From a virus, in the IMG/VR virus record IMGVR_UViG_3300042991_000201, positions 1 to 64,000 of that record: 64,000 nt of DNA; one strand, 5' to 3'. Positions 4,716-50,365 of this stretch are shown here, piece after piece (within the stretch, counting starts at the first letter, position 1; every line of letters starts with the position of its first letter). The translations under genes and the position numbers were made by a program. The notes under the pieces were generated by a model. The model saw only the letters and a program-made list of their open reading frames with translations. It did no database searches and was not told the DNA's origin.

Positions 4716-7046
4716 ATGGAAAACAACAAAGCATTTGTAGCCATATTGAAACACATTACACCAATAGAAGGTGCTGATAAAATCGTGCAAGCCCAAGTGT
4801 ATCTCAATGGTGTACCTATTACTCAAGTTATAGTCGGAGTAAATACCAAGGAAGATACTCCTGTTGTTTACTTTGATAGCAATGTATGTCTATCTGACAG
4901 ACTCGTTACGGACTATCCTGACCTTGCTACCTATCTTGCCAAAGATAATCGTGTGCGATGTATCAAATTACGTGGGGTAGTGTCTAATGGATTGTGCATA
5001 GATATTGTCAAATTTGCAAAGTACACTGCCGTAGAGATGCCTGAAGGTTACGCTTTTGACAAATTAGGGGATGTAGAGATTTGTCACAAGTTCATCCCCC
5101 TGAAGCTGGAGCCTACTGTGAAACATAAGAATCGGGAACGGAAAGCCAAAAAGCCTTCTCGTATCATTCCAGAGATGTTTCACTTTCATATCGATACGGA
5201 ACAGCTTCCAAGGAATATGCACAAACTTCATATTGATGATGTAGTATCTATTAGCAGAAAATACCATGGATGCTTCACGGGTAGAACACTGGTATCTATG
5301 GGAGACGGGACTAAAAAGAGAATAAAGGATATTGTCGTTGGGGATAGTATATTGGGATGCACAGAAGAAGGTGGAGTTGTACTTAGTAAAGTATTGAATA
5401 CTTTTATGAATGGGACTACTGACAAGTGGTATCGTATTAAATATAGAGGGAGAAAAATTCTACATGCCACAGGAACTCATCGCATATATACTCAACGTGG
5501 TTATGTAGAAGTACAAGACCTTACCCCACAGGATAAGATAATATATCCTACAACAGTTCCAATCCTAGATATAGATGCAAAGTCTGTGCTACTAGGTAAA
5601 GCATTGGGAGACGGATGCCTTCAGTCAAACGCAGACTCTTTAATGCTTCAGGTATCTCATAAAAATGACCATGAGCAATATTTAGATTATTGCATCTCTC
5701 TTCTACATCCTATTGACTGTGGTAGTAGTAAGACACACAAGACTTCCGGGTATGGCACAGATATGATTCGCTGGCATAGCTCACAAACACACGCAATAAA
5801 CCATACTTTGAAAGCCTATCTGTCAGATAAGAAGTTTAAGATAACTGAGGCACTTGTTAATGATTTAACCCCGCTCGCTTTAGCTATTTGGTACATGGAC
5901 GATGGTAGTTTAATACATTCCGAGTTACAACAGGATCGTGCTGGGCTTGCTATTTGCTCTTTTGGCCCAGAAGTATATCCCATCATAGGCAGAGCTTTAG
6001 CTCAGTATGGTATAGAAAATGTGACTTTCTATACTTCGCATAATAAGGGCAATCCCAAAGCACATTCCCGTATTCGATTTAATTTGGATGCCGCTTGTAA
6101 GCTATTTGAGTTAATAAAGGAGTATATACCTCCATGTATGCAATACAAACTTCCAGTAGAGTACAGAGGATACTATAAGTCTCCTACTATACGTACATCT
6201 ATAGAATATGAGCAAATACTGGTTCCTTATTCTGTTGTTTCTGTAGAACAGGTAATTGCAGATGGATACACGGGGAATGGTAAGTATGACATAGAGACTG
6301 AGACTCACAACTATATTGCAAATGGAATTGTAGTGCATAACTGTTCTGCCATTACTAGCCATACGCAGGTCAAGAAATCTCTATCTATATTTGAAAAAGT
6401 TTTGAAGGTTTTCAAGTTTCCCGTGGGGGATAGGGAATGGACATACTTGTATGCAAGTCGTAGCGTAGTGAAAAATGACGCTGTATCTACAGGATTTTAC
6501 AAGTATGATTTATGGACGGAGACAGGTAAGAAGTATTTTGATGGTAAACTGCATAAGGGCGAGACAGTATACTATGAAATTATTGGATATATCCCCGGTA
6601 CCAAGAGTTTTATCCAGAAGAACTACGATTATGCTAACCTTCCCGGAGATTGTTCCATTGTTGTGTATCGTATCACTTCCACTAATACTGACGGGGTAGT
6701 GTATGAATATTCTTGGGCGGCTATAAAAGACCGCTGTAAAGAGTTGGGTGTTCATATGGTACAAGAATATTATTACGGAACTATTCGTTCTCTACTCTTT
6801 GGATATTCTATAAGACCGAATCCAGAGTGGAATGCTGATCTACTTGCCCTACTTCAAAAGCGATACCTTGAACGAGATTGCCCCGACAATCTTTGCAAGA
6901 AGATGCCTGATGAAGGTATTGTACTTAGGGTAGAGGCAAAAGACATTCAGGTATACAAGTATAAGAGTGAAAAATTTTTGACTCAGGAATCTAAAGCCAA
7001 GGAAGATGAAGTTCCAGATATTGAAGAACAGGAAGGAGTACTCTAA
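4716..7046 (+). CDS. ATP-dependent RNA ligase (DRB0094/Rnl5-like) containing an intein
   Basis: N-terminal PIEGADKI domain; motif I KYHG|CS, YYEIIG, EGIVLR, YKYKSEKFL. Confidence 0.85.
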   Translation: MENNKAFVAILKHITPIEGADKIVQAQVYLNGVPITQVIVGVNTKEDTPVVYFDSNVCLSDRLVTDYPDLATYLAKDNRVRCIKLRGVVSNGLCIDIVKFAKYTAVEMPEGYAFDKLGDVEICHKFIPLKLEPTVKHKNRERKAKKPSRIIPEMFHFHIDTEQLPRNMHKLHIDDVVSISRKYHGCFTGRTLVSMGDGTKKRIKDIVVGDSILGCTEEGGVVLSKVLNTFMNGTTDKWYRIKYRGRKILHATGTHRIYTQRGYVEVQDLTPQDKIIYPTTVPILDIDAKSVLLGKALGDGCLQSNADSLMLQVSHKNDHEQYLDYCISLLHPIDCGSSKTHKTSGYGTDMIRWHSSQTHAINHTLKAYLSDKKFKITEALVNDLTPLALAIWYMDDGSLIHSELQQDRAGLAICSFGPEVYPIIGRALAQYGIENVTFYTSHNKGNPKAHSRIRFNLDAACKLFELIKEYIPPCMQYKLPVEYRGYYKSPTIRTSIEYEQILVPYSVVSVEQVIADGYTGNGKYDIETETHNYIANGIVVHNCSAITSHTQVKKSLSIFEKVLKVFKFPVGDREWTYLYASRSVVKNDAVSTGFYKYDLWTETGKKYFDGKLHKGETVYYEIIGYIPGTKSFIQKNYDYANLPGDCSIVVYRITSTNTDGVVYEYSWAAIKDRCKELGVHMVQEYYYGTIRSLLFGYSIRPNPEWNADLLALLQKRYLERDCPDNLCKKMPDEGIVLRVEAKDIQVYKYKSEKFLTQESKAKEDEVPDIEEQEGVL
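5271..6341 (+). mobile_element. intein (357 aa) with LAGLIDADG homing endonuclease
   Basis: Starts CFTGRTLV, block B ATGTHRIY, LLGKALGDG and LAIWYMDDGS, ends YDIETETHNYIANGIVVHN followed by Cys. Confidence 0.93.
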
Positions 7047-44240: not shown

Positions 44241-44651
44241 GTGTGCCTCCATGCAATAGAAGATACCACAATACTTATAAAATGTCAAGAAGAAAAACGT
44301 GGGGCGGCGAGGATATCGATAAGATGCTAGGAGCGAGTGCAAGCGCACTGAACAAGGATAGTGCGCCATTGCGTTTATTACGTCCATTTGACGGAAAGTA
44401 CGCACTACCTATAACAAATGTCACCACAGCCCGCCTCGTTAAACTGGTGGGATATTTGCCTGAAGTATATGGGGTAAAATCTTTGCATACTCCCAGCATA
44501 GCCAAAAAACGGAAACAGTAGCGAAAGCATAAAGCTAGGTAGACCAATAGGACAAGGCAGAAAAGTGCCGGAAGCGGCGGCGGCGGGGCAATCCTCCTAT
44601 AATTTTTCCTATTTAGGAGAATAGTAGGATTTATACTTACATAGGGAACTA

Positions 44652-44741
44652 TATAGCACTCTATTTTATAGCACTCTATTCTATAGCACTCTATTTTATA
44701 GCACTCTATTCTATAGCACTCTATTCTATAGCACTCTATTT
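44652..44741. repeat. tandem repeat, 6 x 15 bp TATAGCACTCTATT(T/C)
   Basis: Counted directly. Confidence 0.95.
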
Positions 44742-44938
44742 ATATTATATCTATAGTCTATTCTAAGTATCCTAGTTTCTCAAGTATTCAAATCTCAAAT
44801 TTATATTATATAGTTTTTATTAGGAATTTATGACCATGAACGAAGTGAATGGTCTAGGACAAAGATAAATACGAAGTATTTTCTGAAGTCCTATATTCTC
44901 TTATATTCTCTTCTCTTATATTATATTATATTAGTTAG

Positions 44939-45073
44939 ATGCATTTTCTGCACGGGTCTACATGGAAAAATTCATCAAAATCCCTAAAAAGCTATGCACT
45001 TTCTGCATACCCATGCACTTTCTGCACGGCTTTTGGGTAAGTCCTTATTAGATGCACTTTCTGCACGGGTCTA
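44939..45073. repeat. four iteron-like repeats ATGCAYTTTCTGCA (putative replication origin)
   Basis: Copies at 44939, 44994, 45013, 45052 next to an AT-rich tract. Confidence 0.7.
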
Positions 45074-45260
45074 GTAGATTGGAATTTGTTTCCGTCTATC
45101 TCTATTGTATATAGGTTCATATAAGTCAGTACCCCCCTTGACATTTTATATGTACTTCATTATTGGGATTTCAGGCTCCACATATAGTGGCCGGAAAATT
45201 GGAAGAGAATGAGCGAAGTCAGGTTTCGATCATGTATCTTCTATATTATTCTAGTGCCCA

Positions 45261-45344
45261 TTGACAGATTTTCAAGAATCTGTTATTTTTATTCGCGTTA
45301 AGTGGCTGCAACCCCTTGACAATGCTTTCTTGTGACGGCATAAT
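45261..45344 (+). promoter_or_regulatory. tandem sigma70-type promoters
   Basis: TTGACA-17-TATTTT and TTGACA-17-CATAAT. Confidence 0.65.
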
Positions 45345-45347
45345 GAT

Positions 45348-45420
45348 AGAGCGTTATTTGATTCTAAAGGAAGTCGTCACCTTCCTTGAACCTTTGCAGA
45401 GGGGAATCAAATAGCGCTTT
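45348..45420 (+). ncRNA. C4/CI-like structured antisense RNA candidate
   Basis: 17-bp closing stem enclosing two hairpins whose loops complement upstream sites. Confidence 0.55.
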
Positions 45421-45440
45421 TCTATTTAGAGGGGTCAGAT

Positions 45441-46046
45441 ATGGACAATGACATGAGTGTCTATGGAGACAAGAGGATGACAGTTAAGGAAGTAGCAGAT
45501 ATCCTTGGTTATGAGTATGATACCATACGAAAAAAGATCAAGGAACTATTTCCAGAGAACGTAGAACAGGGTAAGTCTACGTTGCTCACAGAAGTACAGG
45601 TGGTTGAATTGAAGAAACGCCTAGTTCCACGCACTGCGGCATTGAAATCCGGGGTTGATTCTGCATCTACTGAACTCGAAATGAAGCAGAAAACCGTTGA
45701 AGTAATGGCTTGGCTTATGGGACAAGTAGAACAAGAAAAAGCCGCTCGTATGGAAGCAGAGCGTAAACATGCCATATTGATGCACGTTTCAAAGACGTAT
45801 ACCGCTACTGAGATTGCTAAAGAGCTTAATCTGAAGTCAGCACAGGAGTTGAACAGACTCCTTGTGGATAGGAAAATTCAGTATAAACAGAATAATACTT
45901 GGGTGCTGTATTCAGACTATTCCGATTTAGGTTATACTGAAATAAAGCAGAAGGTATTAGATACAGGGCGCATCGTATATGATCGACATTTTACTCAGGA
46001 TGGTCGTGCATTCCTTCTAGGTCTATTTTCTAAGGAATTGGTATGA
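45441..46046 (+). CDS. antirepressor-like protein (HTH + KilA-C)
   Basis: MTVKEVADILG; T.TEIAKEL...LN..L....QYK....W.LY...T..GR.F. Confidence 0.85.
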   Translation: MDNDMSVYGDKRMTVKEVADILGYEYDTIRKKIKELFPENVEQGKSTLLTEVQVVELKKRLVPRTAALKSGVDSASTELEMKQKTVEVMAWLMGQVEQEKAARMEAERKHAILMHVSKTYTATEIAKELNLKSAQELNRLLVDRKIQYKQNNTWVLYSDYSDLGYTEIKQKVLDTGRIVYDRHFTQDGRAFLLGLFSKELV

Positions 46047-46921: not shown

Positions 46922-47054
46922 TTGACTTTTCTGTGACTATGTATTATATTCATGGGCGTACCATAGATTGATTACGCGAGAGTGACAGCTTACGCAATCA
47001 ATTAGTCGCTTTTACCCCTCTAAGCCGTCTGTCACCGGCAAGGAGGGGTTTTTT
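46922..47054 (+). promoter_or_regulatory. promoter plus a two-hairpin leader (attenuator candidate)
   Basis: TTGACT-17-TATATT; complementary loops GTGACAG/CTGTCAC; T-run. Confidence 0.55.
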
Positions 47055-47069
47055 ATATAAGGAGTCTCT

Positions 47070-49564: not shown

Positions 49565-49618
49565 AGTATGGAGACTTTGTAGTATATAGATGCCCATTAT
49601 AAAATGGGAGGCTATAAC

Positions 49619-50365
49619 ATGGAAGATAGAAACGGGACAATTTACATGTATACATCTCCATCAGGGAAGTGTTACATAGGACAAACATGGAAACCCAATA
49701 AGCGCAAAGCGGCTCATCGCGCTATGAGTGGTAATTCTGTTGCATTTTTTAATGCTATTAAATCCTATGGTTTTGAAAACATGACGTACTCCATCCTACA
49801 TTCAGAGGTGAAAACACAAGATGAAATGAATAGACTTGAATCCCTTGAGATAAAAAATAGGGACACACTAAGTCCAAATGGTTATAATCTGAATGGAGGA
49901 GGGGGTGCACAGGGAGTTCGTAGTGCTGAGACTAGAGCGCGGTTAAGCGCGGCACGGCTAGGGAAACACATGAGTCCAGAATCAAGAGAAAAAATCGGGA
50001 GGGCGGGTAGAGGTCTAAAAAGAAGTCCCGAAACACTAGAAAGAATGAGGGCGGCTAATATAGGTAGAAAGCATAGTCTAGAGACAAGAGAACAGATGAG
50101 TATATCTAGACGGGGTAGAAAGCTAAGTCAAGAAGCAAAAGATAATATTGGTAAAGCAGTGCGAGGTAGGAAGGCAAGTCCAGAAACAAAAGAAAAGCAA
50201 AGGAAATGGAATACAGGTAGAAAAATGAGTCCAGAGGCGATAGAAAAAACGCGGATAGCTAATATTGGCCGGAAGGCGTCTCCTGAGACAAGAGAAAAGA
50301 TACGCCAAGCTGGTCTAATTCGTTGGCAGAAGATACGAGATGCAAAAAATTCTAAATCTGAATAA
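49619..50365 (+). CDS. GIY-YIG homing endonuclease with NUMOD3 repeats
   Basis: TIY...GKCYIGQT, PNGYN, repeated G(R/K)x.SxET motifs. Confidence 0.92.
   Translation: MEDRNGTIYMYTSPSGKCYIGQTWKPNKRKAAHRAMSGNSVAFFNAIKSYGFENMTYSILHSEVKTQDEMNRLESLEIKNRDTLSPNGYNLNGGGGAQGVRSAETRARLSAARLGKHMSPESREKIGRAGRGLKRSPETLERMRAANIGRKHSLETREQMSISRRGRKLSQEAKDNIGKAVRGRKASPETKEKQRKWNTGRKMSPEAIEKTRIANIGRKASPETREKIRQAGLIRWQKIRDAKNSKSE

Follow-up and report, generated by a model that had tools for sequence, protein, structure and literature searches.

What decides whether transcription enters the antirepressor and replication genes of a phage that has no visible repressor? For RNA-only immunity or attenuation switches (P1 c4, P4 CI, N15, IsrK), the known examples come from a few proteobacterial phages, and database finds rely mostly on the Rfam models for C4 and IsrK. 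The question is raised here by an uncultured virus, probably from a cave metagenome, whose IMG/VR record (IMGVR_UViG_3300042991_000201) is 73.7 kb long and rated complete. The window analyzed comprises positions 1 to 64,000 of this record, and coordinates refer to it unless another locus is named. The minus-strand arm encodes siphovirus-type structural proteins (terminase, portal, protease, tape measure) and the plus-strand arm encodes a primase, helicases and a DnaB-like protein. The divergent arms are separated by an 890-bp non-coding region (44548–45440), and the RNA module that is the subject of this report occupies its right end. The rightward early/replication arm opens with a gene (45429–46046, plus strand, with the RBS GAGGGG at 45429–45434) that starts with the ATG at 45441 and encodes a 201-residue HTH-KilAC (ANT) protein, its HTH at the N terminus. 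In relatives, a replication organiser and a DnaB/DnaC-like gene come directly after the Ant-like gene.

The portal protein is at most 31% identical to those of cultured phages, there is no close cultured relative, and blastn against 50,697 phage records returned no cultured-phage match to the intergenic region. The original prediction, made from the letters alone, had described a phage lacking a visible repressor or integrase, and this holds for the complete record, in which no integrase, serine recombinase, Cro/CI-type HTH or ParB was found. The genome looks virulent.

Fold of the small RNA and its leader targets

The module centers on a Y-shaped small RNA (45348–45428, plus strand), ~74 nt long when transcribed from the predicted promoter P2; the RNA was delineated by folding, by a repeat finder and by the same architecture in relatives. 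In the minimum free energy (MFE) fold of 45346–45424, an outer stem of 18 pairs, three G·U among them (45348–45365/45403–45420), encloses two hairpins. Hairpin 1 has a stem at 45367–45373/45381–45387 and the loop UCGUCAC (45374–45380), and hairpin 2 has a stem at 45391–45394/45399–45402 and the loop UGCA (45395–45398). The loop originally assigned to hairpin 2, TTGCAG (45394–45399), corresponds to the pairing 6-mer UUGCAG, but in the fold it is a 4-nt loop with its closing U·G pair. The fold energy is −32.3 kcal/mol (z = −5.8), equaled by none of 200 shuffled sequences, and the repeat finder independently returned the outer-stem arms at 45350–45364/45404–45418.

A T-run (45418–45428) ends the RNA, and the RBS of the HTH-KilAC gene lies 8 nt further on. 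The T-run of the window is short (UUUUCUAUUU), which counts against the switch proposed below. There is no promoter between the terminator and the HTH-KilAC gene, and thus the gene would be expressed only by read-through. The minus-strand fold of the window is 8.4 kcal/mol weaker than that of the plus strand, and in four homologues the plus-strand fold is better by 7–8 kcal/mol. A U·G pair occupies the identical stem position in the window and in the related loci L095 and L096, the three sequences with a GAGSG stem foot, and the outer stems covary. Because the plus strand folds better in all four homologues and the U·G position is kept, the structure is interpreted as an RNA on the plus strand. 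In contigs from four sequencing runs, which span only the flanks or the RNA's 3′ end, no informative variants were seen.

Two tandem sigma-70 promoters, 55 nt apart, precede the RNA on the same strand. P1 (45261–45289) comprises TTGACA at 45261, a 17-nt spacer and TATTTT with an upstream TG, and its transcript includes both target hairpins, adding a 50-nt two-hairpin leader. P2 (45316–45344) comprises TTGACA at 45316, a 17-nt spacer and CATAAT, an 11/12 match, and its predicted start (~45350–45351) coincides with the foot of the outer stem. Leader hairpin B (45297–45320) has the stem GUUAAG/CUUGAC and a 12-nt loop that contains site B, CUGCAA (45306–45311). Leader hairpin A (45322–45341) has the stem AUGCU/GGCAU and the loop UUCUUGUGAC that contains site A, GUGACG (45332–45337). 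The corresponding CTGCAA and GTGACG are exact antiparallel complements of the loops of hairpin 2 and hairpin 1, respectively, so that A pairs with hairpin 1 and B with hairpin 2 in antiparallel order and at equal spacing. With GGC, the pairing between site A and hairpin 1 extends to 8 bp (GUGACGGC/GUCGUCAC), and the site A duplex, at −13.5 kcal/mol, was matched by none of ~300 control windows.

The −35 box of P2 is the 3′ stem half of leader hairpin B, and site A lies inside the P2 spacer; therefore only P1 transcripts carry the targets. Against dinucleotide shuffles of the 100 nt upstream, two loop-directed 6-mers have a probability of 0.008 in the window alone, and leaving aside the trivial antisense copy of the RNA, this is the sole Watson–Crick bipartite CTGCAA...GTGACG site in the 73.7-kb genome. 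Folding and the promoter scan thus place the stem, the two inner hairpins, the two upstream complements and the two promoters where the original prediction had placed them. Also supported, by the predicted P2 start at the stem foot, the end at the T-run and the overlap of both target sites with P2 elements, are a separate small RNA gene that has a promoter and a terminator of its own and a bipartite upstream target present only in the P1 transcript.

P2 carries a CCCCTTGAC signature common to other promoters of the same phage. In an extended form, CCC(C/A)TTGAC, the signature occurs at promoters 45135, 45258, 45313 and 46919 on the plus strand and 31691 on the minus strand, which, judged by this shared motif, may belong to one temporal class.

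Covariation and cassette exchange in related loci

Many full-length homologues of the Ant-like protein occur in metagenomes; the comparison covers a few metagenomic loci, with ~40 closer homologues of the gene outside it. Covariation was analyzed by script, because MAFFT alignments of the RNAs were structurally wrong. A Y-shaped RNA followed by a T-run lies upstream of the homologous gene in L095/L097, L096 and L094. P1 is found at 2302–2330 of L095 and 1918–1946 of L096, and P2 is found at the equivalent position (2355–2383 and 1972–2001, respectively), ending 3–5 nt ahead of the outer stem. The P2 −10 boxes of the relatives match at only 4 of 6 positions. An equivalent of leader hairpin B is present in both L095 and L096 with a different loop sequence.

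Loop–target covariation had been set beforehand as one of the tests of the original prediction, and complements of the loops do occur at conserved offsets in L095/L097, L096 and L094. Site A precedes the RNA by 17, 21, 20 and 16 nt in the window, L095, L096 and L094, where the respective loops are CGUCAC, CGUACA, CCAUAA and UUUCUAUGC. Site B lies 43, 42 and 44 nt upstream in the window, L095 and L096, with the loops UUGCAG, CUGACCAG and GCCGGCAG, respectively. The loop letters are unrelated among the relatives, and the pairing, the positions and the promoters are kept. By a rough estimate, a perfect 6-mer complement in a 7-nt positional window has a chance of ~0.002, and five independent events of this kind were seen. 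For at least one loop, the upstream duplex energies surpass every control window in 6/6 relatives. A search for a downstream target or RBS complement gave energies like those of random windows within 120 nt downstream in six relatives. Because the relatives retain the pairing with entirely different letters, the lock-and-key RNA is, on this comparative sequence evidence, real and uncatalogued.

YUNR U-turn motifs accelerate the pairing of antisense RNAs. Each of the four two-loop modules has a YUNR-like tetranucleotide immediately 5′ of site A: CUUG in the window (45328–45331), UUUG in L095, CUUA in L096 and UUUG in L094.

The flanks of L096 and L097 are 97–100% identical over ~960 nt upstream and ~640 nt downstream, and over the ~235-nt module, from upstream of P1 to the T-run, the identity falls to 28–62%. 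The difference between the two loci looks like a swap of a specificity cassette. Predicted loop–leader energies of the two alleles are −22.4 and −24.7 kcal/mol for the cognate pairs and approximately −10 kcal/mol for the non-cognate pairs. Orthogonal swapped alleles are the pattern expected of a trans-acting specificity determinant, and they are hard to reconcile with a purely cis helix. The swap is reminiscent of the heteroimmunity of P1 and P7, in which allelic c4 differences give specificity (PMC12197685). With covariation and a bounded cassette swap, the comparative support is unusually clean.

At L094, the 3′ half of the RNA, the T-run and the RBS are duplicated (41–126 and 393–442) around an inserted 90-aa ORF, an arrangement suggesting that recombination at the terminator brought in a gene. 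No clear module was found in L087 and L167, and L168 holds only a weak 6-bp version. Searches of IMG/VR added no further examples: the exact 17-mer of hairpin 1 gave five matches, all in unrelated GC-rich coding DNA; a single-protein locus search and two architecture/flank patterns gave no match; and an alignment-based search returned mostly Bro-N/KilAC genes of ~77-kb gut phages with dissimilar intergenic regions.

Simpler modules with one promoter

A second module of the window (46922–47069, plus strand) has one promoter, TTGACT-17-TATATT, and precedes the RBS (47070) of a Bro-N/KilAC gene. Its leader hairpin exposes GUGACAG (46982–46988), and its terminator has the apical loop CUGUCAC (47029–47035) and a T-run. 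The same 7-mer pair, GUGACAG/CUGUCAC, occurs in the L090 group (L090/L091/L092/L007) with the leader and terminator roles exchanged. Other one-promoter modules of relatives pair GUAAGACC with GGUCUUAC (L093), UGAACCC with GGGUUCA (first module of L088) and UCGUACC with GGUACGA (second module of L088, within an operon).

The kissing modules thus comprise modules 1 (two kisses) and 2 (one kiss) of the window, two in L088, and those of L093, L094, L095/L097, L096 and the L090 group. The kissing partner is upstream of the terminator in 9/9 modules, and a promoter, a kiss between leader and terminator loop, a terminator abutting the RBS of an Ant, KilAC or Bro gene, and covariation were all found. 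According to the predicted folds, all modules share a kiss between a leader loop and a loop of an intrinsic terminator that is unusually long or branched and adjoins an RBS. Among 1,837 terminator-like hairpins from all loci, complements of at least 7 nt are barely enriched upstream (2.7%) relative to downstream (1.8%); thus, the kiss is specific to these modules and not a general property of terminators. In one-promoter modules, both partners are on one transcript with no evident source of free RNA, and thus the ancestral role may be purely cis. Between modules 1 and 2 of the window, predicted energies would permit cross-talk through a shared GUGAC/GUCAC core, at −10.4 and −8.8 kcal/mol versus −10.8 and −13.5 kcal/mol for the cognate pairs.

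Proposed switch, competing explanations and known systems

The reading that we prefer, with a probability of roughly 0.55, is a self-contained RNA lock-and-key at the antirepressor/replication arm, in which a kiss in cis modulates the terminator and free P2 RNA competes in trans. The module probably decides whether transcription continues into the antirepressor and replication genes. On a P1 transcript, the leader loops would kiss the loops of the nascent RNA while the 3′ half of the 17–20-bp outer stem is still to be made, and since the arcs cross, the kiss and the terminator stem would together form a pseudoknot. If the kiss came first, the 5′ stem strand would be enclosed in a closed ring with the 3′ strand still tethered to the RNA polymerase. 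A stem longer than one helical turn, such as the 17–20 bp of Y-type modules, could then not wind in time, and read-through would leave the genes ON, so that the kiss in cis would act as a built-in antiterminator. The RNA made from P2 would have the loops without the targets; on accumulating, it would occupy the leader loops of nascent P1 transcripts, either of its own genome or of an incoming homoimmune genome. With the leader loops occupied, the terminator would fold and the ant/early genes would be shut off. The outcome would be a copy-number- or time-dependent shut-off of the ant/early genes and allele-specific interference with related incoming phages, the same outcome as with P4 CI RNA, with "addresses" that are specific to each allele.

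The direction (sign) of the regulation is purely a matter of inference. RNAfold, which is unable to represent the kiss, returns the terminator as the MFE structure of full-length P1 transcripts. Since the genome looks virulent, "immunity" may mean temporal shut-off or competition with a co-infecting phage and not lysogeny; temporal control or inter-phage competition is at least as likely as lysogenic immunity. The carrier state or superinfection immunity that the original prediction had proposed is a conceivable role. We suggest only tentatively that an intrinsic terminator with a built-in kissing antiterminator, a trans decoy from a hidden promoter that restores termination, and swapped 6–9-nt addresses constitute a new class of RNA immunity. 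If this is true, the kisses would topologically lock a stem of more than one helical turn, and cassette addresses would create heteroimmune or incompatibility types without a protein repressor.

The strongest competing explanation is purely cis, with a tertiary contact between leader and terminator that sets the efficiency of the terminator or shields the leader from decay, and with P2 merely a second promoter. The cis partner would always be nearer and kinetically favored, and one-promoter kissing modules do exist inside operons or before other genes (46922–47069 of the window, 4630–4745 of L088, L093 and the L090 group). However, a purely cis contact gives no obvious reason for orthogonal alleles or for the wholesale replacement of the module between flanks of 97–100% identity, nor for a consensus −35 box placed exactly in the target hairpin and a −10 box ending 3–5 nt before the RNA in three diverged alleles. 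For these reasons we regard it as a minority possibility, to be taken seriously. An activation like that of IsrK, in which the terminated short RNA binds the read-through isoform and opens the first gene for translation, has a precedent (PMC4825925), and the MFE fold of the P1 transcript of the window does pair CUGCAACCCCUUG with the RBS region UAGAGGGGUCAG. This sequestration of the RBS by the leader was rejected as a feature of the module because it is confined to the window fold: in the full-length folds of L095 and L096 the RBS is free. The lack of conservation argues against IsrK-like activation, as does the lack of an Rfam IsrK match, and we consider such activation improbable.

Even less probable is translational repression of the genuine c4 type, or a target elsewhere, in another phage gene or in the host, the upstream sites then serving only as a cis mask. 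The layout and the Y shape are analogous to those of P1 immI, but complementarity within 120 nt downstream does not exceed chance in six relatives, the 73.7-kb genome has no other bipartite site, and the C4 covariance model does not match. Finally, the nested inverted repeats could be binding sites for a protein at the DNA level, or chance matches, and not an RNA at all; the sites do overlap P2, and other repeated boxes, probably protein sites, lie nearby. Such sites would not explain why G·U pairs make the structure strand-specific or why 6–9-mers covary in loops at fixed offsets within unrelated sequences, and half-sites 36–82 bp apart whose sequence changes freely misfit a DNA-binding protein, so that we give this explanation hardly any credence.

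Rfam models were searched at the gathering score across the 64-kb window and at E ≤ 10 for 44800–45700 and seven related loci. At these thresholds, neither C4 (RF01695), c4-a1b1 nor IsrK (RF01394) matched, and the matches obtained (CPEB3, MIR5048, snoRNAs) were noise. The C4 and c4-a1b1 models that the original prediction had named as a check gave no support for family membership. A pair of loops addressing a bipartite upstream target, as in its C4/CI-like switch, is supported; membership of the family and a target at the downstream RBS are not. Judged by sequence and predicted structure, the module resembles the logic of c4 and CI and is a member of neither family. The literature search found no paper on a kissing-loop terminator small RNA before a phage antirepressor.

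The immI region of P1 has an a1/b1-c4-ant layout with a Y-shaped c4 RNA, which is cut out of a longer precursor by RNase P. The likeness to c4 of P1/P7 (immI: a1 b1 – c4 – a2 b2 – icd – ant) lies in an RNA of ~75 nt just upstream of the antirepressor gene and in two exposed sequences (a′, b′) complementary to a pair of upstream, same-strand sites (a1, b1). However, an a2/b2-type target over the ribosome site is absent from the module and from six relatives, and the RNA of the window has its own near-consensus promoter (P2) embedded in the target and finishes with an intrinsic terminator directly before the RBS of the gene. Since neither an a2/b2 (P1) nor a seqC (P4) equivalent exists downstream in six relatives, the RNA could not repress by masking the RBS. 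The function of c4 is summarized in PMC12197685 and PMC8198154. In P4, seqB of the CI RNA pairs with seqA upstream and seqC downstream, which results in premature termination (PMC4825925). The module shares with P4 a complementary site upstream on the same transcript and what would be an RNA-only control of replication genes through premature termination, but it has no downstream seqC equivalent and no similarity in sequence or model, and CI is made by processing whereas the Y-shaped RNA would come from its own promoter.

In IsrK of the Salmonella Gifsy-1 prophage (RF01394), the short isoform activates the long isoform upstream of an antirepressor-like gene (PMC4825925). As in IsrK, a leader RNA and a terminator lie upstream of an antirepressor-like gene, and short (terminated) and long (read-through) isoforms are able to pair mutually. 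Unlike IsrK, which activates translation via an upstream ORF, the module has neither such an ORF nor conserved RBS sequestration, and it lacks an Rfam match. Replication genes of plasmids pT181 and pIP501/pAMbeta1 are attenuated by opposite-strand antisense RNAs of full complementarity. There too, loop–loop kissing with a nascent leader decides whether a terminator forms before a replication gene, and the effect depends on copy number. By contrast, the Y-shaped RNA is a same-strand copy of the terminator with only 6–9 nt of loop complementarity.

The module would thus bring the logic of the P1 c4, P4 CI and IsrK switches, sequence-unrelated and wired differently, to an uncultured phage. Its pair of 6–9-nt addresses over a terminator is compact, orthogonal and apparently programmable, which makes it a possible part for synthetic biology. 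The set of modules suggests that, in many uncultured phages, leader RNAs of an unannotated class gate the antirepressor/replication modules.

Several other features of the record were observed. Between the divergent arms, six tandem 15-bp repeats (TATAGCACTCTATTY) and four ATGCAYTTTCTGCA boxes (44649–44740 and 44939–45065) are candidate origin iterons or operator sites. A 776-aa RNA-ligase/helicase-like ORF (4716–7046) includes a LAGLIDADG homing-endonuclease segment, and a separate homing-endonuclease gene with GIY-YIG-type matches lies in the early arm (49604–50365). The record is classed as linear, and ~77 nt at its ends (~126–205 and ~73674–73750, the latter beyond the window) are near-identical, with three mismatches, which suggests terminal redundancy or an imperfectly closed circle.
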